Positions 26,701 to 53,853 of a stretch of DNA of 57,080 bases are shown in pieces. Source of the stretch: Polyangiales bacterium (GTDB lineage Bacteria > Myxococcota_A > Polyangia > Polyangiales > Polyangiaceae); contig JBBRLQ010000042.1 in the NCBI GenBank assembly GCA_038231275.1, positions 1-57,080 of the forward strand. Reading direction: 5' to 3'. How positions within the stretch are numbered: the stretch's first letter is position 1; each line of letters begins with the position of its first letter. The position numbers and the translations under genes were made by a program. The notes beneath the pieces were generated by a model. It did no database searches, had not been told where the DNA came from, and saw only the letters and a program-made list of their open reading frames with translations.

Positions 26701-29559
26701 CACGATCGCGACGGCGTCTCGCAGGTCTCCAAGGTCAGCGGCAACGAGGATCTCGGCACCGGCACGTCGAAGTTCGATCTCACGATGTTCGTCGCCGAGA
26801 GCGAGGCCGGCCTCGAAGGCCTGGTCGAGTACAGCACCGATCTCTTCGAACGAGAGACGATCGCGCGCCTCACCCGCTCGTATGGCCAGCTCCTGCAGTC
26901 GATCGCGCGGAACCCGGAGGAGAAGGTCGCGCGCCTCTCCATGCTCGCCGAGGCCGATCGCTTCCAGCTCGTCGCCGAATGGAATCAGACGGCCTCCGCT
27001 CCTCCCGAGCTCGGCGACTGCCTCCACGAGCTGTTCATGCGCCAAGCCTCGCGGACGCCGAGCAAGGTCGCGGCGACGTTCGCGGAGGAGAGCCTGACGT
27101 ACGCCGAGCTCGATCGCCGGTCGACGCTCCTCGCGCGCCACCTCGCGCGCCTCGGCGTCGGTCCGGACGTCCTCGTCGGTCTGCTCGTCGAGCGCTCGCT
27201 CGACATGCTGGTCGGCCTCCTGGCAATCTTGAAGGCTGGAGGCGCGTACGTACCGCTCGATCCTTCCTTCCCGGCCGAGCGCCTCGCGCACATGGTCGAC
27301 GACAGCCGAATGCTCGTGCTGGTGACGCACCGCGGGCTAGAGGAAACGCTGCACCGCCGGCCGGATTTCATCGTCGACCTCGATGGGGATCGCGACGCCA
27401 TCGCGATGAGCGACGGAACCGAGGCGCCGGAGGCAAGCGCGACGCCTTCCAGTCTCGCCTATGTCCTCTATACGTCGGGCTCGACGGGGCTGCCGAAGGG
27501 CGTCGCCATCTCGCACGCGGCGATCGTCAATTTCGTCCTCTCGATGCAGCGCGCGCCGGGCATCGGCGAAGGCGATTCGCTCCTCGCCGTGACGACCCTC
27601 TCGTTCGACATCGCGGCCCTCGAGCTTTACGTGCCGCTCGTCACCGGCGCGAAGGTCGTGATCGCGAGCCGCGAGGACGTCGTCGATCCGCGGCGGCTCA
27701 TTCGGCGCCTGGAGACTGGCGCATGCACGGTCATGCAAGCCACTCCCGCGACGTGGCGCGCCCTCGTCGACGCGGGGTGGAAGGGCTCGCCGCGCCTCAA
27801 GGCCCTCTCGGGCGGCGAGGCGCTCCCTCCGGACCTCGCGCGCGCGCTGCTCCCTCGCTGCGCGGAGCTATGGAACATGTACGGCCCCACCGAGACGACG
27901 GTGTGGTCGACGCTCCACAAGATGACCGCGGCGGACGGCTCGCCACCGATCGGCCGCCCCATCGCCAACACGCAGGTCTATGTCGTCGACGCCGAGCTTG
28001 CGCCGGTGCCGCCGGGCGCGGTCGGCGAGCTCTACATCGGCGGCCGCGGCCTCGCGCGTGGATACCTGAACCGCGAGGAGCTCACCAACGATCGCTTCGT
28101 CCCGAGCCCGTTCGTGCCGGACGCGCGCATGTACAAGACAGGCGATCTCGCGCGGTGGCGCGTCGACGGCAACCTCGAGTGCCTGGGCCGCACCGATCAC
28201 CAGGTGAAGCTGCGCGGCTATCGGATCGAGCTGGGAGAGATCGAAGCGTGCTTGGCGCGTCACGCCGCGGTTCGGCAAGCGGTCGTCGTCGCGCGCGAGG
28301 ACGTCCCGGGCGACAAGCGTCTCGTCGGGTACGTCGTTGCCGAAGGGCCGCCCGCCGATCTCACAGATCAGCTCCGCGCCACCCTCCGCGCGTCGCTGCC
28401 CGAGTACATGGTGCCGGCGCACGTCATGCTCCTTCCCGCGATGCCGCTGACGCCCAACGGCAAGGTCGATCGAAAGGCGCTCCCCGCCCCCACCGCCGCG
28501 AAGACCGACGCGCGCGAGGGCGCATACGTGGCGCCGCGGAGCGATCTCGAGATCAGCCTCGCCGCGGCCTGGCAGCGCATCCTGCGGGTGGAGCGCGTCG
28601 GGATCCACGACGACTTCTTCGAGCTCGGCGGCAACTCGCTCAGCGTCCTCAACCTGATGCTCGAGATGGAGCAGACGACCGGCGTCGAGGTCACGCTGGG
28701 GTCGATCTTTCGAACGCCGACGATCGCGGCTCTCGTGGAGAGCCTGGGCGGCGCCGCAGAGAAGGACACGTCGATGGTCGTGCCGCTGCAACCCGCAGGC
28801 GCCGGCCGTCCCATTTTCTGCCTGTGCGGCGTGAGCCTCTACCAGGAGCTCGCGCACTCGCTCGGCGACGCGCAGCCGGTCTTCGGCGTCTACGTGCCGG
28901 AAGACCAGGCGATCACTCGGCAGGCGCTCAAGGGTGAGAAGCTCGACATCTCGATCCCCCGGCTGGCGCAGGCCTACTACGACGCGATCGTGAAGGTCGC
29001 GCCGCGCGGACCGTACCGCATCGCCGGCAGCTCATTTGGCGGCATCGTCGCCCTCGAGGTCGCCTCGATGATGCGCCAGAAGGGCGCGGAGGTGGAGCTC
29101 GTGGCGCTGCTCGACACGCTCTCGCCGCGCGGCATCCACCGCAACTGGCGCAAATGGATCCGCCGACGCGCGGGCCAGCTCGTGAACGGCGAGGCGCCCG
29201 AGAAGGTGCTCTACGCCCTCTCGCGGCTTCGCGACAAGCTGGTCGGCCGTGGTGTCTTGCCGGGCGCGCTGAGCCAGGCGCAGCTCGCGCAGGTGGCGTT
29301 CGATCGCAAGCAGCAGGCCTACTTCGCGGCCATCGCGAGCTGGCAGACGCGGCGCATCGTCTCCGACTACAAGATCGTCCTCTTCCGCGCGTCCCATCAG
29401 CTGTGGGGGCCGCAGGACGAGCTCCAGAACGACTACGGCTGGCACTACTACTTGAGCAGCCCGATCACGGTGGTCGACGTACCCGGCGATCACCTTGGGA
29501 TCCTGAAGAGCCCGCACGTCGCCGATCTCGGGCGCAAGGTGCGCGAGCACGCCTCCTAG
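23788..29559 (+). CDS. Two-module NRPS, A-T-C-A-T-TE (predicted Asn, Gly)
   Basis: Two YTSGSTGxPKG / YKTGDL / NGKVDR A domains; T motifs LGGHSL and LGGNSL; C motif HHVIAD; TE GSSFGG and GDH. Confidence 0.96.
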   Translation: MSTAIQESARAPCVHHLFEQQVARTPDAVAVVFEDRRLSYRELDARANQVAHFLRASGAGPESLVGVCLERRPELVIALLGVWKAGAAYVPLDPAYPRDRLAFMVEDAGIRALLTERKCHALFASASLHAVCLDDEWASTFAGEPTESPDASADPASLAYVMYTSGSTGKPKGAMILHGGLVNYLTWAIEAYGVHAGGSVPVHSSIAFDLTVTSLYPALLAGAHVELLTEQAGAQHLLAALRRTPRSVVKITPAHLDVLTQQLRPDELAGLTNVFVIGGENLPAESLTAWREHAPATRLINEYGPTETVVGCCIHEVIEGDPYGGPVPIGLPIARTELYVLDEQRKRVATGVMGELYIGGAGVARGYLNRPDLTRERFLDDPFSGRPGARLYKTGDLARQREDGVFEFFGRVDDQVKVRGYRIELGEIEAAIAGHPAVQSCAVLAREDTPGNKRLVGYVVARTGASETPTSADLQAFVAKNLPEYMVPAHVIFLPSLPLTVNGKVDRKSLPAPSEASATSGHDVKAPRTDTERKIAAIWCKLLKVEAVGVDVDFFDLGGHSLLAIKALAQMRDVLGVDLPPQTLFEHSTVEALAVLVGGDEPAEERAPAPIPRVGGPGPHPASFAQQQLWLLDQLVPDSPAYTIVDVVPLPGAYQVTALKKALHELVTRHEVLRTTFLRVNGQLMQRIAAPFEPALAEIDLSAAPPETQERDWARAVREQGQRPFDLSRLPLLRVTVVHFAADVHRLLVTVHHVIADEWSMELLHGELTKLYAAFARDLPSPLAPLPIQYADFATWQHASLQGEIRAEQVAYWTRELHGASPILALPVDKPRPASPTLRGATFGFSVPKAIADALHALGRREQATPFMVLEAAFATLLHRYTGQDDVLVGTPISGRTHTETQALIGCFLNTVVLRAQFPRDLDFRGLLKQVRERALGAYAHADLPFEHLVAEIAPERDPGRTPLFQAMFIQHDRDGVSQVSKVSGNEDLGTGTSKFDLTMFVAESEAGLEGLVEYSTDLFERETIARLTRSYGQLLQSIARNPEEKVARLSMLAEADRFQLVAEWNQTASAPPELGDCLHELFMRQASRTPSKVAATFAEESLTYAELDRRSTLLARHLARLGVGPDVLVGLLVERSLDMLVGLLAILKAGGAYVPLDPSFPAERLAHMVDDSRMLVLVTHRGLEETLHRRPDFIVDLDGDRDAIAMSDGTEAPEASATPSSLAYVLYTSGSTGLPKGVAISHAAIVNFVLSMQRAPGIGEGDSLLAVTTLSFDIAALELYVPLVTGAKVVIASREDVVDPRRLIRRLETGACTVMQATPATWRALVDAGWKGSPRLKALSGGEALPPDLARALLPRCAELWNMYGPTETTVWSTLHKMTAADGSPPIGRPIANTQVYVVDAELAPVPPGAVGELYIGGRGLARGYLNREELTNDRFVPSPFVPDARMYKTGDLARWRVDGNLECLGRTDHQVKLRGYRIELGEIEACLARHAAVRQAVVVAREDVPGDKRLVGYVVAEGPPADLTDQLRATLRASLPEYMVPAHVMLLPAMPLTPNGKVDRKALPAPTAAKTDAREGAYVAPRSDLEISLAAAWQRILRVERVGIHDDFFELGGNSLSVLNLMLEMEQTTGVEVTLGSIFRTPTIAALVESLGGAAEKDTSMVVPLQPAGAGRPIFCLCGVSLYQELAHSLGDAQPVFGVYVPEDQAITRQALKGEKLDISIPRLAQAYYDAIVKVAPRGPYRIAGSSFGGIVALEVASMMRQKGAEVELVALLDTLSPRGIHRNWRKWIRRRAGQLVNGEAPEKVLYALSRLRDKLVGRGVLPGALSQAQLAQVAFDRKQQAYFAAIASWQTRRIVSDYKIVLFRASHQLWGPQDELQNDYGWHYYLSSPITVVDVPGDHLGILKSPHVADLGRKVREHAS

Positions 29560-42487: not shown

Positions 42488-43936
42488 TCAGCTCGGCTCG
42501 CCGGAGCGGGGGTCATCGTTCGCGGTACGCTTCGGCGGCGCGAGGCCGTACTCGTGCAAGCGGTACTGAACCTTTCGGATGCTGATGCCGAGCATTTGCG
42601 CCGCGCGTGACGTGCTCCCGCCCGCCGCCTCGAGCGTGGACAGGATCGCGTGCCGCTCGATCTCCTCGAGCGTCGATCCCGGGATGCGGACGGCGCCGAC
42701 GCTCTGAGGGGCGATCGCGGTGGGGAAATGCTGCGCCGTCACTTTGGATCCGTCGCAGAGGACGCACGCTCGCTCGATCACGTTCTCGAGCTCGCGCACG
42801 TTGCCGGGCCATCGGTGCTCTTCGATGCGCTCGACGGCGGACGCGTCGAAGCCGGTGATCGGCTTGCCGTTCTCCTTGGCATATTTGGAGAGGAAATGCC
42901 GCGCGAGCGGGAGTACGTCCGTGGGCCGGGCGCGAAGCGGCGGCATGTCGATGTTGACGACGTTCAGCCGATAGAAGAGGTCCTCGCGGAACCGGCCGGC
43001 GGCGACCTCGGCGCGAAGATCGCGGTTGGTCGCGGCGATGACGCGGACGTCGACGCGGAGGGTCTCGGTGCCGCCGACGCGCTCGAACGCGCGCTCCTGG
43101 AGGAAGCGCAGCAGCTTGACCTGCGTGGCCGGTGTGATGTCCCCGATCTCGTCGAGGAAGAGCGTCCCGCCGTCGGCCAACTTGAAGTGGCCTTCGCGCC
43201 GGCCGGCTGCGCCTGTGAACGCCCCTTTCTCGTGACCGAACAGCTCGCTCTCGAGCAGCGACTCGGCGAGCGCCGCGCAGTGGAGCTTCACGAACGGCCG
43301 GCGCGCGCGCGGGCTGTTCTCGTGCACGGCGGTGGCCGCGAGCTCCTTGCCGGTCCCGCTCTCGCCGGTGATGAGCACCGTCGCGCGGCTTGGCGCGACC
43401 TGCTCGATCGACTTGTACACCTGCTGAATGGCCGGGCTCGTCCCGACCATGTTCCGGAGGCTCACGCGCTCGCGGAGGCGCGCGCGCAGCTCGGCGGCCT
43501 CGTGGCGCAGCCGGCGACGCTCGAGCGCGCGGTCGAGGATGACGATCACCTCGTTCATCTGGAGCGGTTTGGTGAGGTAGTCCTCGGCTCCCTCTTGCAT
43601 CGCCTGAACCGCCGTCTCGACGCCGCTGAACGCGGTCATGAGGACGACGAGAAGATCAGGATGCTGCTCGCGCACGCGGCGGAGAAGCTCGAGGCCGTCC
43701 ATGTTCGGCATCCGCACGTCGCTCAGGAGCAGGTCGGGCGCGGTCTCGACGACCTTGGCGAGCGCCTCCACACCGTCGGCGGCGAGCTCCACGTCGAAGC
43801 CCTCGAGCCGGAGCACGCTGGCGAGGCCGTTGCGGCCGCTCGGCTCGTCGTCGACGATGAGGACGCGCCCGCGCGCCGGGCGCACGGAGTTACGGGACGA
43901 ATCGGACTCGAGGCTTGTCGCGGCGGCCATGCCCAT
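42488..43936 (-). CDS. NtrC-family sigma54-dependent response regulator (start uncertain)
   Basis: Receiver domain (VDDE, SDVRMP, KP), [27 protein letters not shown], Fis HTH. Confidence 0.96.
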
Positions 43937-43941
43937 CGCAG

Positions 43942-43957
43942 AGCATCGCCCGTGCCG
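43942..43957 (-). promoter_or_regulatory. Putative sigma54 promoter of the activator gene
   Basis: CGGCACGGGCGATGCT, GG-N10-GC; very close to the first ATG so the real start may lie downstream. Confidence 0.5.
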
Positions 43958-44060
43958 ACCGGGGAAATCGTGCCTCGGCGACCACGCCGCGCGCCTCCCT
44001 GCGCAAGGCCTGCGTGGGCGCGCACGGCTTGCGCACGCGCCGCGCCGATCTCCACGGATT

Positions 44061-44510
44061 TTAGGCGCCGCGCATGCGCTTCACGGCGGCCGTCACGTCG
44101 GTGCCCTGGACGCTCGCGCCCGTCGTCTTGAGGTGCTTCATCGCTACGCCGGTCGCCTGGCCGTCGCTCTTGGCGTCGCGCACCGCGTCGGCCACCGGCG
44201 CGAGGAGGACGACGATCTGATCGGGGCCGAGCGTCGCCGGCAGAACACCGAGCAGGATGCCGTTCTCGCGCTCCAGCGCCGCTCGCTCGTCGCCCTGCGT
44301 ATGCGCGAGCGTCTCTTCGTTCGACTTCACGAGCTTTCGCACGATCGCCACCGCGTCCGCCTCCGATACCGGCGCGTTGGTGCGGGCCTCGGCCGTCTGG
44401 ATCTCCCCGAGTGCGAGGCGCAGGATCGACGTGGCCGCCGTGTCTTTCGCCTTCATCGCTTCGGCGGCCCGCGCCTTGAGGGTGGTCACCAGCTTGTTCT
44501 CGGACGTCAT
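44061..44510 (-). CDS. GatB/YqeY domain protein
   Basis: EAMKAKD...[10 protein letters not shown]...IVRKLVK...E...LP pattern. Confidence 0.8.
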
Positions 44511-44570
44511 CCCCCGGCTATTAGCACGAGGCCTCGCGCGCGGCGGCACGGAGGGTGCTTTGCCCACCGC

Positions 44571-45188
44571 GTGAACTTGCGAACCGCCCCCATCGTGCTC
44601 GTCGCCGCCGTCATCGGCGCCGGCTCCTTCGCCGTCTATCGCTCCGCTCCGGCCTCCGCGCCGGCCTCCGCGCCCGATCGCCCGCCGATCGCCGCGCTGC
44701 CGCCGAATCACCCCGCGGTCGACACACCGCCCGCCCACGCCACCGTCGCGCCGAACAAGGACGCGACGCCTTCCCTCGGCTGGACGGCGCCCGACGCGTG
44801 GTTGACCGCGCCGAACCCGAGCCCGATGCGCCTCGCGACGTACAGGGTGAAGGGTGACGCTGGCGAAGCGGAGCTCTCCGTGACGCGCGCAGGCGGCACC
44901 GCCGACGCGAACATCGAGCGCTGGCTCGGTCAGTTCGATCAGGCCGGCAAGGACACGCGCGCCGAGAAGACCGTGCGCGGAATGAAGGTCACGATCGTCG
45001 AGGTCGCCGGCACGTACATGGGCGGAATGACCGGCGCGCAAGGCATTCACCCCGGGTGGTCGCTCCTCGCCGCGATCGTCGAGACCAAGGGCGACCCCTA
45101 CTTCTTCAAGCTCACGGGCCCCACGGCGACCATCAAGGCCGCGCGTCCCGCGTTCGATGGAATGGTCGACGGCCTCACGCCGAAGTGA
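44571..45188 (+). CDS. Membrane-anchored hypothetical protein with LPPNHP motif
   Basis: N-terminal TM, LPPNHP, SPMRLATY, GGTADANIERWLGQF, YFFKLTGP. Confidence 0.75.
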   Translation: MNLRTAPIVLVAAVIGAGSFAVYRSAPASAPASAPDRPPIAALPPNHPAVDTPPAHATVAPNKDATPSLGWTAPDAWLTAPNPSPMRLATYRVKGDAGEAELSVTRAGGTADANIERWLGQFDQAGKDTRAEKTVRGMKVTIVEVAGTYMGGMTGAQGIHPGWSLLAAIVETKGDPYFFKLTGPTATIKAARPAFDGMVDGLTPK

Positions 45189-45432
45189 CGTCGCTCTTCT
45201 TCGCGCCGAGCAGCTCCCGCCGCGTGCGCAGCAAGTCCGCGGCGACGACGAAGAGGAAGAGGCCGAACGACAGTGTGCCCAGCACCTGACCGATCGACAT
45301 CGCCATGATGACTTGGAACGGTCGCGGATCCATGACCGACCAGATCATCAGGGCGATCGCGGCGAGCGCAGAAATGCAGGCGACCGAGAGCAGCCGGGCG
45401 ATCGCGCGGGGTCCTAGCTTCGCGACGTTCAT
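45175..45432 (-). CDS. Small 2-TM membrane protein coupled to the NapC/NirT gene
   Basis: ATGA overlap with upstream stop; two hydrophobic helices. Confidence 0.78.
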   Translation of the reverse strand: MNVAKLGPRAIARLLSVACISALAAIALMIWSVMDPRPFQVIMAMSIGQVLGTLSFGLFLFVVAADLLRTRRELLGAKKSDVTSA

Positions 45433-46109
45433 CGGTCGACTCCTGCGTCCTGCTGCCGCGCGCGGCGCTCGTCGTCGGCCTTCTTGACGTCCTCGGCGGG
45501 CTTGGTGAAGGGGTGCGCGAAGCCGTGGCATCCGCCGCTCGCGCAGCTGATCTTCCCGCTGCGGACCTCGTCGAGCGAGGCCTTGTGATCAGGGTGCCTG
45601 TTCCAGATGTCGAGATCGGTGGAGTGGCAGTGCATGCAGTTGTCGTTGGGGTACGGCTCGTAGAGCTTGATCGTCTTCTCGGACTCTTCGATGGGCACGT
45701 TGCGGTACTCCGTCAGGTACGCCCATACGTGGTGCATGCCGCCGATCTTGGTCGTGATCGTCCCGTACATGCCGTAGTCGGCGTGGCACATGTAGCAATT
45801 CTCTTCGCCGAACAGCTTGTTGCGACCGTGCCGTGAGGCGAGCGACAGGCTCTTCGGATCGCTGGAGTCCTGCGCGTGCGGGACCATCACGTGGCACGAG
45901 CCGCAGAAGGTGCGTTGCTTGGTCGCCTCGTAGCCCTGCACGTTGCCGGCGCCGGCGAGGCCGATCGGAAACACGCCGAGGCCGAGCAAGAGCCAGAGGC
46001 GCCAGATCGGAGTGAGCAGCGGGCGCCGCACGAGGTAGACGAGGAGAATGCACGCCGAGATCGCTGCGCAGGCATACGCGACGAGATCGAGGGGGGCAGC
46101 GTGGGTCAC
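45429..46109 (-). CDS. NapC/NirT-family tetraheme cytochrome c (quinol dehydrogenase)
   Basis: Two TM helices, TFCGSCHVM, CYMCH, CMHCH, CASGGCH; GGAGG RBS. Confidence 0.88.
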   Translation of the reverse strand: MTHAAPLDLVAYACAAISACILLVYLVRRPLLTPIWRLWLLLGLGVFPIGLAGAGNVQGYEATKQRTFCGSCHVMVPHAQDSSDPKSLSLASRHGRNKLFGEENCYMCHADYGMYGTITTKIGGMHHVWAYLTEYRNVPIEESEKTIKLYEPYPNDNCMHCHSTDLDIWNRHPDHKASLDEVRSGKISCASGGCHGFAHPFTKPAEDVKKADDERRARQQDAGVDR

Positions 46110-46159
46110 GGGAGGTCCTCCGAGCGCGCCCGGGATTTGCACCGGGCCCCTCCGAGATG

Positions 46160-46175
46160 TGCAAGACGGCGGCCA
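46160..46175 (-). promoter_or_regulatory. sigma54 promoter of the NapC/NirT operon
   Basis: TGGCCGCCGTCTTGCA, GG-N10-GC, 51 nt upstream of the start codon. Confidence 0.7.
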
Positions 46176-46195
46176 CGCAGCGTCACACCCGCGCG

Positions 46196-47368
46196 ATGAA
46201 GCTGCTCGTCTTGTGTGGTGCGACGACGGCCGCGCGCACCGTTTGCGCAGAGCCGCTGCGTTTGCGCGCCGACGCGGTGGCCGAGGCGCAGGCGCCCGCG
46301 GGCCTCGTCATCCTCGAGGGGCAGGACAAGGTGAGGCCGTGGCTCTACGCCGAGGGCCTCGTATGGACCGGGACGCGAAGCGATCCCAAGACCGATCCGG
46401 CGGCCGACGTGATGGTGCTCGCCGTGCGCCTGCGCGACCCGCGCGGATTCGGCGAGATCAAAGGAGGGCGCTTCGTCGTATCGACGGGCGCGGTAAGACC
46501 CGTGCAGATCGACGGCGCGCACGCGCTCGGTCGCGCGCCGTGGCAGACGACGACCCTAGAGGCGTTCGCCGGTGCGCCGGTGGTGCCGCGCTTCGGTACG
46601 ACCGGCTACGACTGGCTCGGCGGCGGGCGCGTCGCGCAGACCCTCGCGTCGCGCGCCACGCTCGGAGCGTCGTACGTCCAGCGTCGCTCGCACAAAGACA
46701 TCGCCGACGACGAGATCGGCGCAGACCTCGCGGCGGTGCCCGTCCCCTGGCTCGATCTCGCCGGGAGGAGCGCCTACGACCTCACCTCCCCGGGCATCGC
46801 CGACGCGCTCGCCTCCGCCGCCGTTCGTTTCGCGCCGATGCGCGTCGAGCTCTTCGCCGCGCATCGATCGCCGTCGCGTCTCTTGCCCGCGACCTCGCTC
46901 TTCTCGGTCCTCGGAGATTTTCCGTCGCAGTCGATCGGGTCGACGGTTCGCTGGGAGGCGGCGCCGCGCCTCGATCTCCTCGCGAGCGGCGCGGGGCAAC
47001 GCGTCGGCGGCGAATTCGGTGGCAACGGCTTCCTGCGCGCGCTCCTGCGCACGGACGAGCGCGGCGAGGGGAGCCTCGGCCTCGAGGGGCGAAGGCAAGA
47101 CGTGTCGACGGCGAAGTGGACCGGCCTGCGAGGGCTCGCGTCGCTGCCGCTCGGGCACGGCTTTCGGTACGCGACCGAGATCGAGATCGCGGTGCCCGAC
47201 GCGCCGCGCGGCCGCGGGATCGCGTGGCCGTGGGGGCTCGTCGCGCTCTCGTGGCGCTCGGCGAGCGGGTGGGAGGCGGCCGGCGCCGCCGAAGCGTCGT
47301 CCACCCCGGAGCACCGCTACCAGATGAACGCCCTCTTCCGCGTATCGCGCACCCTGGAGATCCGGTGA
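46196..47368 (+). CDS. Putative outer-membrane beta-barrel (porin-cytochrome type)
   Basis: Possible signal peptide, many amphipathic beta-strand-like segments with aromatic residues, no heme motif; GTGA overlap with the cytochrome gene. Confidence 0.65.
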   Translation: MKLLVLCGATTAARTVCAEPLRLRADAVAEAQAPAGLVILEGQDKVRPWLYAEGLVWTGTRSDPKTDPAADVMVLAVRLRDPRGFGEIKGGRFVVSTGAVRPVQIDGAHALGRAPWQTTTLEAFAGAPVVPRFGTTGYDWLGGGRVAQTLASRATLGASYVQRRSHKDIADDEIGADLAAVPVPWLDLAGRSAYDLTSPGIADALASAAVRFAPMRVELFAAHRSPSRLLPATSLFSVLGDFPSQSIGSTVRWEAAPRLDLLASGAGQRVGGEFGGNGFLRALLRTDERGEGSLGLEGRRQDVSTAKWTGLRGLASLPLGHGFRYATEIEIAVPDAPRGRGIAWPWGLVALSWRSASGWEAAGAAEASSTPEHRYQMNALFRVSRTLEIR

Positions 47369-48417
47369 ACCGCTGGCTCACGCTCGTCATGGTCCTGTCC
47401 GTCGCGCTCGCGGCGTGCGCGGGCGTCCTGGGCCTCAAGGGCAAGAACGAGCAGCACCCCTTCGAGCACCGCGCGCACGTGCTGAAGGGTGTAAACTGCA
47501 AGGAATGTCACGCGGGCGTGAACGCCGCCGGCGAGCTCGACGACGTGCACTTCCCCACGCCGACAGACTGCGTTCGCTGCCACGGCAAACCGCACGACAC
47601 GCGCGACTGCCGGACGTGCCACACCGAGCCTTACGTTCGAGAGAGCGCCGAGCTCGCGCGCAAGCATCTGCGCTTCGAGCACTCGAAGCACATGACGCAA
47701 GTGAAGGGCGACTGCGTGCGGTGCCACCTCGGCGTCCAGGAGTCGAACCCGACCGCGCTGCGTCCGGCGATGGCGACGTGCTTCGGGTGCCACGCGCACC
47801 GGGATCAGTGGCAGGTTCGCGACTGCGACGGATGCCACGTCGATCTTGGCGCCGAGCGCGTGAAGCCGACGAGCCACCTCGTGCACGAAGGGGACTTCGT
47901 CCGCGAGCACGGCGTGCGCGCCGCGAGCGCGCGTGAGCTCTGCTCCAGCTGCCACGCCGAGAAATTCTGCGCGTCGTGCCACGCCGTCGGCACCGCGCCG
48001 CTCCTCCCCGCGCGCCGCGAGTTCGACGAGCCGAAGCTCGCCGGTCTCCACCGCGCCGGCTTCCGCGCGCGCCACTCCGAGGAGGCGCGCGCCCAACCGG
48101 GCGTGTGCACCAGCTGCCACAGCGAGAGCTCCTGCAAGGACTGCCACTCGCGCCTCAACGTCGCCGCCGGTGGGAAGGCACGTAACCCGCACCCGCCGGA
48201 TTGGATGGGCCCCGCGCGCGGCGGTCAGCACGGCGTGCAGGCGCGGATCGATCCGGCGTCGTGCGCCGGTTGCCACGGAGGCGCCGGCGAGCAGCTCTGC
48301 GTCTCGTGCCACAGGGTCGGCGGCCCCGGCGGCAACCCGCACGGCGGCAACTTCCACAGCACCAAGAACAAGACGCGCGACGTGCCCTGCAAGATGTGCC
48401 ACTCGGGGGGCCTGTGA
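47365..48417 (+). CDS. 13-heme cytochrome c lipoprotein
   Basis: Lipobox LAAC; 13 CxxCH; FEHxxH cytochrome c3/c7-like motifs. Confidence 0.92.
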   Translation: MNRWLTLVMVLSVALAACAGVLGLKGKNEQHPFEHRAHVLKGVNCKECHAGVNAAGELDDVHFPTPTDCVRCHGKPHDTRDCRTCHTEPYVRESAELARKHLRFEHSKHMTQVKGDCVRCHLGVQESNPTALRPAMATCFGCHAHRDQWQVRDCDGCHVDLGAERVKPTSHLVHEGDFVREHGVRAASARELCSSCHAEKFCASCHAVGTAPLLPARREFDEPKLAGLHRAGFRARHSEEARAQPGVCTSCHSESSCKDCHSRLNVAAGGKARNPHPPDWMGPARGGQHGVQARIDPASCAGCHGGAGEQLCVSCHRVGGPGGNPHGGNFHSTKNKTRDVPCKMCHSGGL

Positions 48418-49991
48418 CGAAGCGCCGCCTGCTCGTCGGGTTCGTCCTCGCGATCGCGGTCGCCGGGGTGGCGGTCTGGTTCTTCGTCACGCGCCTCATG
48501 CACCACGCGCCCGGCGTGCCGGCGGGGATGGTCCCGGTCTCGTGGGCCGAGTTCAAGAAGAGCCCGGGGCACCGCTCGCACGTCGGACGGGACGACGTCG
48601 CGTGCAAGGACTGCCACGACTTCGACAAGGAAGGCTTCAAGAACGCCGGCGCCGCGACCTGCACCAAGTCGTGCCACGCGAAGCAGCGCGAGCGCTCGCA
48701 CCTCGGCGGCGAGGGGGCGAAGACGGACTGCCTCTCGTGCCACGCGTTCGCGCCCGACGTCGCGCCGCGCCCGTGCATCGGCTGCCACGACGCGAAGACC
48801 GTCGGCGCGAAAGGGACGCACGCCGCCCTCGTCGCGCACAAGACCGTCGACTGCGCGAGTTGCCACAAGGTGCACGACGCGACGCCGATCGCGCCGAAGG
48901 CGTGCGCGTCCTGCCACGAGGAGCGCGCCGCGTCGCACGGCGGGCACGAGGGAAGCAAAGGCTGTCTGGACTGCCACAACGGACACGCGGCGGCGAAAGA
49001 AGCGAAGACCGGATGCAACGGCTGCCACGCGACACCCGCCGGACCCAAGCCCGCCGGCCACTCCTCCTGTCTCGACTGCCACGCCCCGCACGAGTTCCCG
49101 GCCACCGGCGCCGTGTGCGTCGGCTGCCACGGCGCGAAGCCGACGCTTGCTGCGGCGAGCGTCACCAAGCACGCCGTGTGCACGAGCTGCCACGCGGGGC
49201 ACGATCCCGGCGGCGCCGCCCGCTCGTGCGCGGGGTGCCACTCGAATGTGCACCCGTCGCACGGCAAGGAGGCGATGCAGTCCGCCTGCATCTCTTGTCA
49301 CGCGCCGCACGGCAAGGACCCCAACCTGGTCGCGACCGCGTGCGTCGCATGCCACGGCGCGGTCGCCAAGCGCGAGGACGGCGCGCACAAGGGCGGAACG
49401 GCCTGCGAGACGTGCCACAAGCCGCACGATTTTTCGCCGAAGACGGGCGCCGCCAAGCAGGCGCTCTGCACGACGTGCCACGCGCGCCAGGTCTCGCTCA
49501 CCGCGGCGAGCGTCGGCCACAAAGACTGCGCGGCGTGCCACGGCGGCTCGACGCACGCCCCCGCGAAGGGCGCTGCGTGCGGGACGTGCCACGCCAAGGA
49601 AAAGGCGACAGCGCCCGCCGGTCATCAAGCGTGCGCGAGCTGCCACGACGCGCACGCCGGCGGCAAGCCTCCGCCCGGAAAGTGCGTGACCTGCCACGCG
49701 CACGAGGCGGCGAGCAAACACGGCAACGCCGCGGGCGGCTGCGCGACCTGCCACCGGCCACACGGTCCGAACGGAATCGCGACGCCGCCCGCCTGCGCCA
49801 CGTGCCACGATCGCGCGAAGCTGCCGGGCCTCCATCAGTCGGCGACGCATGTAGACTGCAAGCAATGCCACGCCGCGCACGGGCCACCTCGCTCCGACCG
49901 CGCGACGTGCACGGGCACCTGCCACGCGAACAAGAAGGACCACCAGCCGCAGGCCCAGGTCTGCAACGGCTGCCACGTCTTCCGAAAGTGA
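48414..49991 (+). CDS. 25-heme cytochrome c with N-terminal membrane anchor or signal
   Basis: 23 CxxCH plus 2 CxxxCH in 525 aa; GTGA overlap. Confidence 0.92.
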   Translation: MTKRRLLVGFVLAIAVAGVAVWFFVTRLMHHAPGVPAGMVPVSWAEFKKSPGHRSHVGRDDVACKDCHDFDKEGFKNAGAATCTKSCHAKQRERSHLGGEGAKTDCLSCHAFAPDVAPRPCIGCHDAKTVGAKGTHAALVAHKTVDCASCHKVHDATPIAPKACASCHEERAASHGGHEGSKGCLDCHNGHAAAKEAKTGCNGCHATPAGPKPAGHSSCLDCHAPHEFPATGAVCVGCHGAKPTLAAASVTKHAVCTSCHAGHDPGGAARSCAGCHSNVHPSHGKEAMQSACISCHAPHGKDPNLVATACVACHGAVAKREDGAHKGGTACETCHKPHDFSPKTGAAKQALCTTCHARQVSLTAASVGHKDCAACHGGSTHAPAKGAACGTCHAKEKATAPAGHQACASCHDAHAGGKPPPGKCVTCHAHEAASKHGNAAGGCATCHRPHGPNGIATPPACATCHDRAKLPGLHQSATHVDCKQCHAAHGPPRSDRATCTGTCHANKKDHQPQAQVCNGCHVFRK

Positions 49992-50013
49992 CCCGACCTC
50001 CCCGCCTCCTCCT

Positions 50014-50058
50014 CTCGTGAGGGGGCCACTCGCGAGAGGGCCACTCGCGAGAGGGCCA
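50014..50058. repeat. 15-bp tandem repeat, three copies
   Basis: ctcgtgagggggcca, ctcgcgagagggcca, ctcgcgagagggcca. Confidence 0.9.
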
Positions 50059-50082
50059 CGTGCACTGCGGGGCCCTGCCTGG

Positions 50083-50122
50083 TGTCCAAAAGCGCGGACA
50101 ACACTGTCCCGAGCGCCGGACA
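50083..50122. promoter_or_regulatory. Tandem palindromic enhancer sites TGTCC-N8-GGACA
   Basis: 50083-50100 and 50105-50122, 22 bp apart. Confidence 0.7.
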
Positions 50123-50226
50123 GTCGGCGTGTCCGAGTCACGCGCGATCCAGTCTAGACCCGCGAATTTTGGCCGTTTCGTGCGCCGATCGGGAGCCGAC
50201 GACGGAGCGATGCCGCGCCCACGTGG

Positions 50227-50242
50227 TGGCATGGTTCCGGCT
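50227..50242 (+). promoter_or_regulatory. Putative sigma54 promoter
   Basis: TGGCATGGTTCCGGCT, GG-N10-GC, upstream of AGGAGG RBS. Confidence 0.62.
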
Positions 50243-50268
50243 TAGGTGAGGTGCAGGAGGAACGCACA

Positions 50269-51183
50269 ATGAACACTCGCCACTCCCTGCTTCTCGCCAT
50301 CGCTTCCCTTGGACTCTTCTCGGTCACCGGCTGCTCGGGCGCATCGAACGACGACAACGCGGCGTCGGGCGACACCGAAGAGGAGCTCTCCCTCGAGTCC
50401 TTCGAGGCGCACGCCATGCCGATCAAGGGCGCCGCTCCGCTCGGCGCGCTGCAGACGAGCGCGGCGCCGAAGGCGAACCTGACGTACCGCGGCGGCAAGG
50501 TGATCCCGTCGGTCAGCATCGTGTCGGTCTACTGGGGGAACAAGGTGCAGTACACCGGGCTCCTCGACGTCTTCTACGGCACGCTGCCGAAGAGCACCTA
50601 CTTCGACTGGGTCTACGAGTACAGCACGCCCAAGCAGTACATCGGGCGCGGCTCGTTCGTCGACGGCGTGACCATCTCGCCGAGCACGTCCTCCGCGAAG
50701 GTCTCGGACAAGACGGTCCAGAAAGAGATCTCCAAGCAGATCGGCGCGCACGTGCTCCCGCCGCCCGACGGCGTCAACACGATCTACATGGTGCACTTCC
50801 CGCCCGGCGTCACGATCAGCGGCCCCGGCGGGATGGGCGATTCGTGCAAGGGGTACTGCGCGTACCACGGCGCGTTCAAGCGCTCCGGCAAGATGGTCTA
50901 CTACGGCGTCCACCCGGACTTCGGCTCGGGCGGCTGCGAGAGCGCGTGCGGAGCCGGCACGGCGTGGGAGAACATGACCGAAGCCGCGTCGCACGAGCTC
51001 ATGGAGGCCGTCACCGATCCGGTGCCCGGTAAGGGCTGGTACGACGATCACCAAGGCGAGATCGGCGACATCTGCGCGTACCAGACCACGTGGGTCGACG
51101 GCTTCAAGGTCCAGCTCGAGTGGTCGCAGCACCGCGGGGCGTGCGTCGCGGCGCCGGCGCCGAGCGGCCACGGGCGCAATTGA
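50269..51183 (+). CDS. Lipoprotein of unknown function, Phi-1/EXORDIUM-like motifs
   Basis: Lipobox VTGC; LTYRGGKV, YCAYH, SHELMEAVTDP, GWYD, EIGDIC. Confidence 0.7.
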   Translation: MNTRHSLLLAIASLGLFSVTGCSGASNDDNAASGDTEEELSLESFEAHAMPIKGAAPLGALQTSAAPKANLTYRGGKVIPSVSIVSVYWGNKVQYTGLLDVFYGTLPKSTYFDWVYEYSTPKQYIGRGSFVDGVTISPSTSSAKVSDKTVQKEISKQIGAHVLPPPDGVNTIYMVHFPPGVTISGPGGMGDSCKGYCAYHGAFKRSGKMVYYGVHPDFGSGGCESACGAGTAWENMTEAASHELMEAVTDPVPGKGWYDDHQGEIGDICAYQTTWVDGFKVQLEWSQHRGACVAAPAPSGHGRN

Positions 51184-51196
51184 ACGCGCGTCGTCG

Positions 51197-52489
51197 TCAG
51201 CGCACGTGATCGAACACGCCGTCGATGTGGTGTGACTTGCCGTCGAGGGTCACGCGGACGGCGCCGGTGCCGTCGCGCGCGATCTCGCCGCCGTGGCACG
51301 TCGAGCGATCGCATCCCGTCGACGGCGTGTGCTGCGTCGGCGGGCTGCGGTGGCATCCCTGGCATGGCTCGACGGCGGCGGCGGGAGCGGTCCACGACGG
51401 AAGCGGGAGCGTCTGATCGCGCATTCCCGCGCCGTGGCACGCGACGGAGCACGCGCCGGACTCGAACGTCGGCGCGACGCCGCGATCGGCGGCGCGACCG
51501 GCGAGGGTGACGTCGACCTTGCCGTTCATGTGACCGGGCGCGTGAATTTCTTGCGGCACGACATGACAGCTCCCGCACGTCACGGGCAGCGTGACGTCGG
51601 GTGTGCGGTGCGCGGCGTGCGCGCCGGTGTCGGGCCACGGATCGTCGGGCTTGCCGTGGCACGCGCCGCACGCGCCGCGTCCATCGCCGAGGTCGACCTT
51701 GCCGTTCAAGTGCAATGGACCTGGGACGAGAGCGGTGCCGTCCGCGTTCGCCTCTTTGTGGCACGCCGAGCATTTTCCCGGGTAGTGCGCGGCGGGCGGC
51801 GCGCCGTGGCAGGAGTTGCATTTCAGGGACCCGGTCTCCGTCCAGACCGGCCGCGCGCGGGTGCCGCCGCGATCGTGGCACGACACCGCGCACGATAGCG
51901 TCGTCTTGTCGAAGCTCGACTCCGGCGCGACGCGGGCGGTGTCGAAGACGATCTCGACCTGTCCGTTCGCGTGGAGGCCCGCGAGGACCTCGCCGCCGGG
52001 CACCGGATGGCAGGTGCTGCACGGCAGACCCTTGGCGACGTGGGCCCCGTGCGCGCCGGTGAGCGCGTTCTCCACCGGGAACGCGCTGGGGTCACGCTGC
52101 GCGGTGGCGGGCGTGCCGTCGCCGTGGCACGTGGAGCACGCGAGGACGCCGCCGTTCTCGGTGTGGCACGAGGTGCAGGCGGGCGCGCCAGGCGCCGCGA
52201 ACGTGACCTTCGCAGGCCGCTTGACGGCCCCGTCGTGGCAGCGGCCGCACGATTGCGGGTCTTCGCCGTCGAGCATCGGAGACCACCGTGACGCGCGAAG
52301 GACGCGCCCGTGGAAGTCGGGGGACCGAGGGTCCGCCATCCCGCTGGGATGCACGACACCTGCGTCGCCGACCGCGCCTTCGACCGCAGCTCGTTCCTGG
52401 CTACACGACGCCGCGGCGCCGCACGCGAAGATCGCGGCGGCGCCGAGGGCGACGATGTGGAGGATGCGAGCGCGGAGGCGCGAGGTCAC
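51197..52489 (-). CDS. 12-heme cytochrome c, Geobacter CxxxxCH/CxxCH-domain-like
   Basis: 9 CxxCH, 2 CxxxCH, 1 CxxxxCH; repeated GAHxAH, HxNGxV, PxW motifs; signal/lipoprotein-like N-terminus. Confidence 0.9.
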   Translation of the reverse strand: MTSRLRARILHIVALGAAAIFACGAAASCSQERAAVEGAVGDAGVVHPSGMADPRSPDFHGRVLRASRWSPMLDGEDPQSCGRCHDGAVKRPAKVTFAAPGAPACTSCHTENGGVLACSTCHGDGTPATAQRDPSAFPVENALTGAHGAHVAKGLPCSTCHPVPGGEVLAGLHANGQVEIVFDTARVAPESSFDKTTLSCAVSCHDRGGTRARPVWTETGSLKCNSCHGAPPAAHYPGKCSACHKEANADGTALVPGPLHLNGKVDLGDGRGACGACHGKPDDPWPDTGAHAAHRTPDVTLPVTCGSCHVVPQEIHAPGHMNGKVDVTLAGRAADRGVAPTFESGACSVACHGAGMRDQTLPLPSWTAPAAAVEPCQGCHRSPPTQHTPSTGCDRSTCHGGEIARDGTGAVRVTLDGKSHHIDGVFDHVR

Positions 52490-53808
52490 TGCGGGCGGCC
52501 GAAACCGGGCGGCGCGCTGCCGACCAGCGCGAAGTACGAGTCGTAGATCAGCTGCTTGGTGTACTTCGGGTTGTGGACGCCGAGCGCGCTGCCGCGGGCC
52601 ACGATCAGGTAGTTGTAGAGTGCACCCGCCTGATCCGCGGTGAGCACGCCGCCGCCGGGCCGCGTCTTGTCGAGCGCGAACTGTCCGTCGGCGAGCGCAG
52701 CATTGCTGAGCGCGGTGTACGGCGGCGCCGCGTCACGCGTCAGGTAGCCCGCGGTGTTCATCACTTTCTGGAGGAGGAGGAGGCCCGCCGTCACCGTCGA
52801 CTGACCGCCGTTGATGTCGAAGTTCGGCGCCGACGTGTGGCAAGACGACGCCGTGCACGTGCTGATCTGCGCGTAAAACGAATGGTTCGGCGTGTTGGCG
52901 TTCGTCGTGATCTCCGGCATGTGGCAGTCGACGCACGTGAGCTTCGACTCGTGGGTCGACGTCCCGTACGTCTGGCCGGAGAAGTGGTACCCACCGGCGC
53001 CGGTGTAGATGTCCGCTTGCGGTCCCTCGTGCGGTCCCCAGTACGGGCTGGTGAGGGTGTTCGACGCGGTGATGTAGTTCGTGACGTCCTTGCGGGCCTT
53101 GTGGCACATGATGCAGGCGTTGGCGGTGCCGCGCGTGCCCGCCGAGGTGCCCGTGATGGTGCCGAGCACCGGGCTCTTCTCGAGGAAGACCACGTCGGTC
53201 GCGCCCACCGGCGCGCGCAGCGGGAACGATCCCGGCGTGAACGCGAGCCCAGTGCGGTGCGGATCGTTGGTGTCGTCGACGGCGTGGCAGGTCACGCAGG
53301 TGACGGCGGCGACCTTCGCGCTGCCCTGGTACATGCCCTCGGTGACCGAGCCGCTCGGCGTCTTGTAGTTGAGCTCGCCATTTTTCCCGTTCGCGATGGC
53401 GCCACCATCGACGGTGCCGATGGTGCCGGCGACGCGGTAGGCGATGCCGTCGATCGCGTGACAGTTGCCGCACGCTTGCGGTCCGGTCCACGTGTCGACC
53501 TCGCTCCCGCCGAGGTTCGAGACGAACGTGGCGTAGTGCGTGCTCGTCTTCCATTGCTCGACGATGCCGTTGAAGCCGTGGCACGGCGTGAGGCAGGACG
53601 ACGGGAGACCGCCGTCGATCGTGGGGATGGGGCCGGGAATTCCTTGCGGACCCCCGGGGCCCGCGGGACCAGCGGCGCCGTTGGTCCCTTGCGCGCCACC
53701 TGCACCTGCGGCGCCGGGGGCCCCTGGAGCGCCATCCGAGCCAGTGCACGCCCAAAGGCCCGCGCCGCCCAATGCGGCGAGAACGGTCACGATTCGTAAC
53801 TTGGTCAT
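52486..53808 (-). CDS. 6-heme cytochrome c lipoprotein with collagen-like stalk (OmcB/OcwA-like C-terminus)
   Basis: Lipobox LWAC, 13 Gly-X-Y triplets, 4 CxxCH plus CxxxCH plus Cxxxx[25 protein letters not shown]. Confidence 0.88.
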
Positions 53809-53837: not shown

Positions 53838-53853
53838 TGCAGGCCTCGTGCCG
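53838..53853 (-). promoter_or_regulatory. sigma54 promoter of the collagen-cytochrome operon
   Basis: CGGCACGAGGCCTGCA, GG-N10-GC, upstream of AGGAG RBS. Confidence 0.75.

Follow-up and report, generated by a model that had tools for sequence, protein, structure and literature searches.

What is a dense array of multiheme cytochrome genes doing in a bacterium of the Polyangiales? Polyangia are regarded as aerobic social predators, and to our knowledge extracellular electron transfer has been studied in few model systems only (Mtr, Pcc/Ext and Cyc2) and, within the Myxococcota, has been tied to Anaeromyxobacter. The array lies at 45429-53808 of a 57,080-nucleotide (nt) stretch of contig JBBRLQ010000042.1 (assembly GCA_038231275.1), which we analyzed as a whole and call the window. 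An earlier note, made from the letters of this DNA, had proposed that it encodes an electron path from quinol to the cell surface. Our analyses lead us to favor, at slightly better than even confidence, a porin-cytochrome electron conduit of a Myxococcota-specific family that would carry electrons outward to an extracellular acceptor.

We first asked which genes make up the array. Genes were called by third-position G+C together with heme motifs, as long spurious open reading frames (ORFs) are common at the 70% G+C of the window, and heme motifs were counted by a six-frame scan and in the translations. The resulting genes, with lengths in amino acids (aa), are as follows.

45429-46109, minus strand: NapC/NirT-family tetraheme cytochrome, proposed quinol dehydrogenase (226 aa; three CxxCH and one Cx4CH; PF03264)
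46196-47368, plus strand: predicted heme-free outer-membrane beta-barrel (390 aa; 22 strands in the AlphaFold2 model)
47365-48417, plus strand: 13-heme lipoprotein (350 aa; 13 CxxCH; lipobox LAAC)
48414-49991, plus strand: 25-heme cytochrome, proposed periplasm-spanning wire (525 aa; 23 CxxCH and two Cx3CH; N-terminal hydrophobic anchor)
50269-51183, plus strand: lipoprotein of unknown family between the two cytochrome operons (304 aa)
51197-52489, minus strand: 12-heme lipoprotein, candidate outer-face cytochrome (430 aa; nine CxxCH, two Cx3CH and one Cx4CH; TIGR01904)
52486-53808, minus strand: 6-heme lipoprotein, accessory and possibly a terminal redox protein (440 aa; four CxxCH, one Cx3CH and one Cx4CH; collagen-like triplets)

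Five cytochrome genes with 4, 13, 25, 12 and 6 motifs, 60 in total (53 CxxCH and seven Cx3CH/Cx4CH), were thereby recovered exactly as the earlier note had counted them, and so was the gene coupling that it had described: 4-nt overlaps join the barrel gene to the 13-heme gene (47365-47368), the 13-heme gene to the 25-heme gene (48414-48417) and the 6-heme gene to the 12-heme gene (52486-52489). The NapC-like gene is divergent from the plus-strand barrel/13-heme/25-heme operon, and the 6-heme to 12-heme pair is convergent with it. The 9.28-Mb genome holds 28 stop-to-stop frames with at least three CxxCH motifs, five of which fall inside the 8.6 kb of the cluster, a heme-motif density far above the genome background. 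The span had been given as 45175-53808; the right end held, and the NapC-like gene was found to stop at 45429, 254 nt short of the left end. An ORF at 45175-45531 (minus strand) has no Pfam match, overlaps the NapC-like gene and is probably not a gene. Another, 43638-45188 (plus strand), belongs to no family and has a YqeY-domain gene on the opposite strand, and was treated as spurious. The lipoprotein at 50269-51183, also without a Pfam or NCBIfam match, had tblastn relatives in none of the 15 related loci described below and is probably outside the system.

To be a conduit, the cluster needs a way through the outer membrane, for which the heme-free ORF 46196-47368 was the candidate. We regard it as a real gene because its third-position G+C is 0.86 and it has 981 homologs at E <= 0.001. 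These form 981 clusters at 90% identity, with 379 representatives at 50%; no Pfam or NCBIfam family was matched at E <= 0.01, and the matches in the ESM Atlas were Myxococcota clusters without names. AlphaFold2, given an alignment of 55 rows from the 50%-identity library, returned a barrel of 22 strands at a predicted local distance difference test score (pLDDT) of 90.8 and a predicted template modeling score of 0.81, with strand connections mostly of 2-11 residues, one 19-residue loop and no plug domain. Foldseek ranked porins and the usher pores PapC and FimD highest. Full-length comparison with VIA-align against ∼48,000 chains gave Z 19 for FimD/PapC, Z 15-17.5 for TonB-receptor barrels and Z 16.7 for MtrB (6r2q_B; root-mean-square deviation 4.7 Å over 341 aligned residues), the matches including barrels of 22-26 strands. 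On this model, the protein is a large, plug-less outer-membrane barrel of the 22-strand class, which bears out the beta-barrel proposed earlier, and its signal peptide is probably cleaved after VCA. Strand-count geometry would give it a C-alpha diameter of ∼4 nm and, if it were unfilled, a hole of ∼3 nm. Because of this inferred size and the lack of a plug and of long loops, we reasoned that a heme wire could fit inside the barrel, which would be too wide to stay open.

The 13-heme lipoprotein encoded next to the barrel is the predicted filling. Its 13 CxxCH motifs and its lipobox cysteine are invariant in 32 sequences, and its family comprises 932 homologous clusters at 90% identity; where the source names the clusters at this identity, they are "hypothetical" or generic cytochromes from metagenome-assembled genomes (MAGs) of Polyangiaceae, Myxococcales or Myxococcota. 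Searched against the sequences of the PDB, the family profile aligned residues 23-197 to ActA (8k9e, 6lod and 6f0k; E 8e-11 to 2e-9), so that by profile comparison the N-terminal half shares homology with ActA, the pentaheme subunit of alternative complex III; MtrA was not found among the PDB sequences. Following the earlier proposal to model the barrel together with a cytochrome, we made one complex prediction, of barrel residues 19-390 with residues 18-350 of the 13-heme protein, both supplied as alignments. The 13-heme protein was placed in the lumen, with interface scores (ipSAE) of 0.81, 0.84 and 0.78 versus 0.00, 0.33 and 0.00 for controls, 335-358 contacts and a partner pLDDT of 70-73, and the runs agreed in at least 86% of contacts. 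Among solved complexes, 116 of 157 reached this ipSAE mark in calibration, versus two of 215 mismatched pairs; with alignments of one's own, as here, these counts are only roughly valid. On the barrel side, the interface consists of alternate, lumen-facing residues on nearly all strands together with the long loop 229-242; on the cytochrome side, it consists of residues 175-344 together with 21-25. The prediction thus puts the C-terminal seven-heme half in the barrel lumen and the ActA-like half outside it. MtrA is absent from the PDB matches of the 13-heme profile, so the score does not stem from sequence likeness to MtrAB.

The seven-heme half also occurs on its own. Stand-alone seven-heme proteins that correspond to residues 174-348 of the 13-heme protein are encoded at three loci of one genus with ∼5-5.6-Mb genomes (L061, L062 and L064), where no barrel match lies near these genes. 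Because the seven-heme half exists alone at these loci, the sequences suggest that an ActA-like module and a seven-heme module were fused to give the 13-heme protein.

Might the cytochromes instead form a periplasm-only redox network for storage or detoxification, with the barrel an ordinary porin that shares the operon and no crossing of the outer membrane? Multiheme cytochromes can act as capacitors, as a passage of PMC11495043 suggests, and the surface exposure of the lipoproteins is without direct support. Against this stand the 4-nt overlap of the barrel and 13-heme genes and their co-occurrence across barrels of ∼25-85% identity, a complex prediction that passes its controls with ∼350 lumen contacts, and the ∼3-nm open hole (its size derived from strand-count geometry) that a plug-less barrel of 22 strands would leave if unfilled. 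We therefore consider such a network improbable.

We then followed the conduit set through the Myxococcota, as the earlier note had suggested. A query with the single barrel sequence recovered only three related loci, and a search across genomes was used instead, giving 15 close loci whose barrels are 40-84% identical to that of the window. The NapC-like gene adjoins the barrel gene in 14 of the 15, the 13-heme gene is present in 14 (the fifteenth ends at a contig edge), and a gene for 22-27 hemes lies downstream of it in 14; as a set, NapC-like, barrel, 13-heme and ∼25-heme genes are syntenic in 13-14 of the 15 loci. A 12-heme-type gene occurs within the region examined in 12 of the 15 loci and a strong 6-heme homolog in four. 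Strong matches to the barrel (E <= 1e-49) and to the 13-heme protein (E <= 1e-90) fall in the same 21 of 301 Myxococcota genomes, among them 12 of the 14 species of one genus with 4-5-Mb genomes. The pairing extends to distant barrels (25-28% identity, in other families): the gene for a 13-heme lipoprotein homolog follows the barrel gene in all eight such loci, and a large TIGR01904-type cytochrome with 8 to 36 motifs belongs to the same operon in six of them. In two further families (L066-L068), a TIGR01904-type cytochrome, the barrel, and 13-heme, 30-heme and 10-heme cytochromes are encoded in that order on one strand, one of these three loci being without a barrel match.

How widespread the family appears depends on the query. 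A full-length 13-heme homolog (E <= 1e-43) is present in ∼65 of the 301 genomes, counted from the match table. Several of the carrier genomes, such as G140, G230 and G170, are close to complete. The single-sequence barrel query under-detects the family, reaching 40 of the 301 versus 98 by the 13-heme profile (E <= 1e-20); the remaining profile matches are a paralogous type, found also on contig C9 of the same genome, and the stand-alone seven-heme proteins. On C9 (122831-125760; locus L017, 4832-7761, minus strand), the gene for a 522-aa barrel-like protein precedes that for a 13-heme homolog (E 1.6e-32) with a Pro/Thr-rich linker; the barrel-like protein is remotely homologous to the window barrel (hhalign 92%, E 6.6e-7). 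A separate region of the genome, C2:602111-611361 (L016), carries a dense one-strand cytochrome cluster with 10, 23, 14 and 21+6 heme motifs, the last cytochrome having five TIGR01904 domains, together with a 302-aa hydrophobic protein and a 695-aa ORF; this cluster resembles PCC3 more than that of the window does, and may be a conduit of the PCC3 kind. At two loci (L004 and L028; genome G140), the barrel gene matches as two overlapping pieces in different frames, which could reflect a frameshift, a pseudogene or an assembly error.

Where would electrons enter? The NapC-like protein, with four hemes, matches PF03264 at 39.3 bits (cut-off 24.1). Its best NCBIfam match is NrfH (35 bits versus a cut-off of 134; E 9.4e-9), and it falls below the NCBIfam equivalog cut-offs for NapC_NirT (16 versus 311) and TorC (21-23 versus 455-478). 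Its pattern of three CxxCH and one Cx4CH is kept in 13 of 13 homologs, and so is an N-terminus of two hydrophobic segments joined by an RRP loop. Members of the NapC/NirT family usually have a single N-terminal helix; the two segments here imply that the N-terminus would lie on the periplasmic side.

The 25-heme protein begins with a 20-residue hydrophobic anchor (Kyte-Doolittle hydropathy 2.69), and its homologs carry 22-27 motifs behind either a transmembrane helix or a lipobox. Hemes are packed at 21 aa per heme, compared with 27 in the 13-heme protein and ∼33 in MtrA according to the part of He 2017 (PMC5566968) that treats it. The family profile found the 16-heme HmcA (1z1n, 3e-17), the dodecaheme GSU1996 (3ov0, 2e-14) and MtrA (6r2q_A, 1.5e-12). 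GSU1996 is 12 nm long, and by analogy with it the 25-heme protein could bridge the periplasm.

The same hardware could also run inward: Fe(II), reduced humics, minerals, other cells or similar donors outside the cell would supply electrons to the quinone pool or to the aerobic respiratory chain, as proposed for MtoAB/PioAB and PCC3. The earlier note had described the lineage as one usually regarded as aerobic. The homologs named by source are Polyangiaceae/Polyangiales MAGs, within the Myxococcota, and the genome encodes four heme-copper oxidase subunit I homologs, which would make oxygen the likely terminal acceptor for inward flow. The best-matching sequencing run is a sediment metagenome, which may be the source sample; no RNA run was among the matching runs listed. 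Published excerpts further propose porin-cytochrome clusters with 21-27-heme periplasmic wires for Fe(II) oxidizers (PMC5566968; 10.1101/2023.01.26.525709, a preprint on Gallionellaceae), and the preprint allows for electron flow both ways through MtoA and MtrA. Family searches found no Cyc2, carbon-fixation or lithotrophy genes in the window, and the sequence as such fixes no direction. What also counts against inward flow is that NapC/CymA-type proteins are best known as quinol oxidizers. Taken together, we regard an inward conduit as rather unlikely, though a serious rival in view of the four oxidases, and outward flow as the better reading of the same set of genes.

We next considered what might lie on the outer face. 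The 12-heme protein matches TIGR01904 (CxxxxCH/CxxCH domain) at 73.9 bits versus a cut-off of 27, over two stretches, and a genome-wide search with this model likewise gave two sites in its gene. Against PDB sequences, its family profile gave only weak c7/NrfB matches, and the cytochromes other than it and the NapC-like protein reach generic c7/c3 models only. Across the phylum, the 12-heme TIGR01904 type is the component found most regularly with the barrel/13-heme pair, which makes it the best candidate for an outer partner. It contains three of the atypical Cx3-4CH motifs, and the 6-heme lipoprotein contains two.

The 6-heme protein has an unusual build: a lipobox is followed by 13 uninterrupted Gly-X-Y triplets (residues 23-61) and then by a hexaheme domain. 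This stalk is present in seven of seven homologs, at variable length, and the family profile picks up collagen chains (E 2.5e-10), with PF01391 on the single sequence giving 19.6 bits, below its cut-off of 27.2. With the collagen part trimmed off, the profile aligned the C-terminal 144 residues to the nitrite reductase NrfA (8bcx_A, E 1.4e-7), covering the heme 4-5 region and C-terminal helices of NrfA including the CxxCHMP and G(V/F)HNP stretches; PF02335 gave 18.2 bits, below its cut-off of 24.1. The first motif is a conserved and unusual Cx3CH, and six histidines outside the motifs are invariant in the family. AlphaFold2 with an eight-row alignment gave a mean pLDDT of 39.1 and no usable fold, and the ESM Atlas gave generic c7/c3 clusters only. 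The gene occurs in eight of the 301 genomes, of which two lack a barrel match, and mostly in the family of the window itself. Our literature searches, none of which was aimed at collagen, turned up no description of a multiheme cytochrome on a collagen-like stalk.

This homology invites a further explanation, in which the NapC/NrfH-like tetraheme feeds an NrfA-superfamily hexaheme, much as NrfH does NrfA, and this hexaheme reduces a soluble substrate (nitrite, hydroxylamine, sulfite or similar), the other cytochromes acting as relays or stores. The NrfH match of the tetraheme, the alignment of the hexaheme to NrfA and its conserved Cx3CH first motif would all fit. However, the six-frame scan found no CxxCK anywhere in the cluster, the six invariant histidines suffice for bis-histidine ligation of all six hemes, and the NrfH match is far below its cut-off. 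The 6-heme gene, moreover, accompanies the NapC-like/barrel set in four of the 15 loci, whereas the NapC-like gene is found with the barrel in 14, and a soluble reductase leaves both the barrel and the predicted cytochrome-in-barrel complex unexplained. We consider this explanation improbable. Because CxxCK is missing and the six histidines are invariant, electron transfer is favored over catalysis for the hexaheme without being settled. The earlier statement that the window holds no catalytic subunit stands insofar as there is no CxxCK, and has to be qualified for the C-terminal module of the hexaheme with its homology to NrfA; in agreement with that note, Pfam and NCBIfam searches found no known soluble reductase partner encoded in the cluster. 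The collagen-stalked hexaheme would be an accessory and possibly terminal redox protein.

On the conduit reading that we favor, the NapC/NirT-type tetraheme would oxidize quinol in the inner membrane, linking the chain to the quinone pool. Electrons would pass to the 25-heme cytochrome, tethered by its N-terminal helix and dense and long enough to bridge the periplasm, and from there to the 13-heme lipoprotein, whose ActA-like half would lie in the periplasm and whose seven-heme half would run through the barrel, much as MtrA is sheathed by MtrB. The invariant pair of barrel and 13-heme lipoprotein would constitute the outer-membrane crossing. At the outer face, electrons could reach an extracellular acceptor either directly or via the 12-heme lipoprotein and the collagen-stalked hexaheme; Fe(III)/Mn(IV) minerals or humic matter would be candidate acceptors when oxygen is scarce. 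As regards the quinol-to-surface path drawn in the earlier note, we obtained in silico the genes with their heme motifs and conserved order, the fold of the barrel and a predicted complex with the cytochrome inside it, and this much of the path stands; we infer in which order the carriers act, that the two outer lipoproteins are exposed at the surface, that electrons flow outward and what accepts them.

Several points weigh against this reading. Its support is computational throughout, without experiment or expression data. The complex score is the model's own confidence, part of which may be structural memory, the sheathed MtrAB (6R2Q) having been solved, and which half of the 13-heme protein faces out is not readable from the complex model. 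Lipoprotein and membrane-anchor assignments were made solely from hydropathy patterns and lipobox motifs. Nor do the 12-heme and 6-heme genes occur everywhere: both are missing within 5 kb in the closest relative (L002), and the 6-heme gene is also carried by the two genomes without a barrel match. NapC-type enzymes act in both directions, so that outward flow is not established, and with four heme-copper oxidase genes the organism may rarely need an external acceptor.

We also inspected the surroundings of the cluster. The genome, at a completeness of 94%, contains c-type cytochrome maturation genes. A promoter and terminator scan gave no sigma-70-like site and no terminator at the operon ends. 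An exact sigma-54-like match (GG-N10-GC) lies at 53839-53852 (minus strand), 31 nt upstream of the 6-heme start; because the window-wide count of this pattern equals chance (77 observed versus 78 expected), the site was treated as a lead only. A sigma-54-dependent response regulator is encoded at 42488-43936 (minus strand), 1.5 kb from the NapC-like gene; it also adjoins the cluster in L002, and a 44%-identical homolog does so in L044. Farther upstream, a nonribosomal peptide synthetase of 1923 aa (23788-29559, plus strand) has two adenylation domains, one condensation domain, two carrier domains and a thioesterase, and several Ser/Thr kinases are encoded near it, a typical myxobacterial context unrelated to the conduit.

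What would follow? The barrel and the 13-heme protein, at ∼1000 clusters each, define a separate porin-cytochrome family that is very common among uncultured Myxococcota of soils and sediments. If the conduit operates as we propose, large aerobic predators could contribute to the redox cycling of iron, manganese and humics, and bioelectronic engineering would gain a small and portable conduit in the 390-aa barrel and its lipidated 13-heme insert. The collagen-like stalk suggests how a redox protein, here a multiheme cytochrome, might be kept at a set distance from the membrane. A bolder picture, which we put forward as a speculation with the chances against it, is that about one fifth of the Myxococcota, Polyangia included, own a home-grown trans-envelope wire derived neither from Mtr nor from the Geobacter Pcc, in which an ActA-like/seven-heme fusion plugs the barrel and a trimeric, collagen-stalked NrfA-like hexaheme serves as a ∼10-nm antenna, so that cells might respire minerals or humics, or pass electrons to neighbors, in oxygen-starved swarms or biofilms.

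Finally, we compared the cluster with known systems. Searches of the literature on multiheme cytochromes, porin-cytochrome systems and extracellular electron transfer in Myxococcota and Polyangia found no description of it. The nearest reports, as far as their accessible parts go, are of Myxococcota MAGs, some of which have many extracellular multiheme proteins (a survey, PMC11495043), of a Polyangiaceae MAG with FeGenie-type matches to MtrA/MtrB and DFE cytochromes (PMC13055281), and of new conduits of an analogous kind in Acidobacteriota and Verrucomicrobiota (bioRxiv 10.64898/2026.05.27.727921).

MtrCAB with CymA (6R2Q) and MtoAB/PioAB share with the cluster a NapC/NirT-type quinol dehydrogenase, a multiheme cytochrome sheathed in a barrel (here by prediction) and lipoprotein cytochromes (here candidate outer partners). 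The placement of the cytochrome in the barrel lumen is a likeness to MtrAB in architecture, not in ancestry. The barrel differs, with 22 strands and 390 aa here versus 26 strands and ∼650-700 aa in MtrCAB, MtoAB and PioAB, and so do the heme counts (13/25/12/6 here versus 10/10 in MtrCAB) and the lipidation of the inserted cytochrome. No cluster protein reaches the cut-off of MtrB_PioB (PF11854, TIGR03509), DmsE/MtrA (TIGR03508) or OmcA/MtrC (TIGR03507): TIGR03508 gives the 25-heme protein 27.4 bits versus 192 and does not match the 13-heme protein, and TIGR03507 gives 15.8 bits versus 209, only on the NapC-like protein. PF11854 has no match across the whole genome, at its 94% completeness. 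The mismatch with MtrCAB that the earlier note had remarked on therefore holds, with no Mtr-family or other equivalog model above its cut-off.

The Pcc of Geobacter and Anaeromyxobacter (OmbB-OmaB-OmcB) likewise sets a small barrel (22 strands here) beside a multiheme gene (13 hemes here, with a 4-nt overlap) and has atypical CX3-4CH motifs in its outer cytochromes, as do the candidate 12-heme and 6-heme proteins here. In the sections of Shi 2014 (PMC4245776) that describe them, Pcc porins have 18-22 strands, periplasmic cytochromes have 5-14 hemes and outer cytochromes have atypical CX3-4CH motifs; the Anaeromyxobacter version consists of two genes, a porin and a 12-heme cytochrome, and membership was defined by BLAST similarity (E < 0.01). 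Our comparison was with this published description, not with the sequences. The barrel-associated cytochrome here differs in being a lipoprotein with an ActA-like N-terminal half, and the conserved set adds a NapC-type tetraheme and an anchored 25-heme wire. Among the best 120 matches listed in each of the barrel and 13-heme searches, most of them nameless, there was no Anaeromyxobacter or Geobacter name. A link to Adeh_3392 (12 hemes, Anaeromyxobacter Pcc) was pursued with a distant 13-heme homolog as query, which listed no named cultured organism; partial matches in the genus with ∼5-Mb genomes were the stand-alone seven-heme proteins of L061, L062 and L064, and the link was not shown.

PCC3 and PCC4 of Fe(II) oxidizers are described in the parts seen of PMC5566968 and 10.1101/2023.01.26.525709 as a porin with a 21-27-heme low-complexity periplasmic cytochrome, which would span the periplasm, and an outer cytochrome; like the present cluster, they are bioinformatic predictions only. 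Their entry point at the inner membrane is a ∼300-aa protein with five helices and two HX13H motifs, according to the relevant part of PMC5566968, in place of which we find a NapC-type tetraheme; the genes within 45429-53808, all accounted for, include no five-helix HX13H protein. Alternative complex III (6F0K, 6LOD, 8K9E) differs in that the ActA-like part is here fused to a seven-heme domain, and family searches found no other subunit genes of that complex in the cluster. The 6-heme protein, in turn, is set apart from the NrfA/octaheme nitrite reductase superfamily by its six hemes, its lipobox, its 13-triplet stalk and the lack of CxxCK. A surface member of that superfamily is known in OcwA of Thermincola.

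Overall, our comparisons place the cluster in a conduit type that is already known and not categorically new. Particular to it are the lipidated ActA-like/seven-heme insert, the NapC-type entry with two hydrophobic segments, the anchored 25-heme wire and the NrfA-superfamily hexaheme on its collagen-like stalk.

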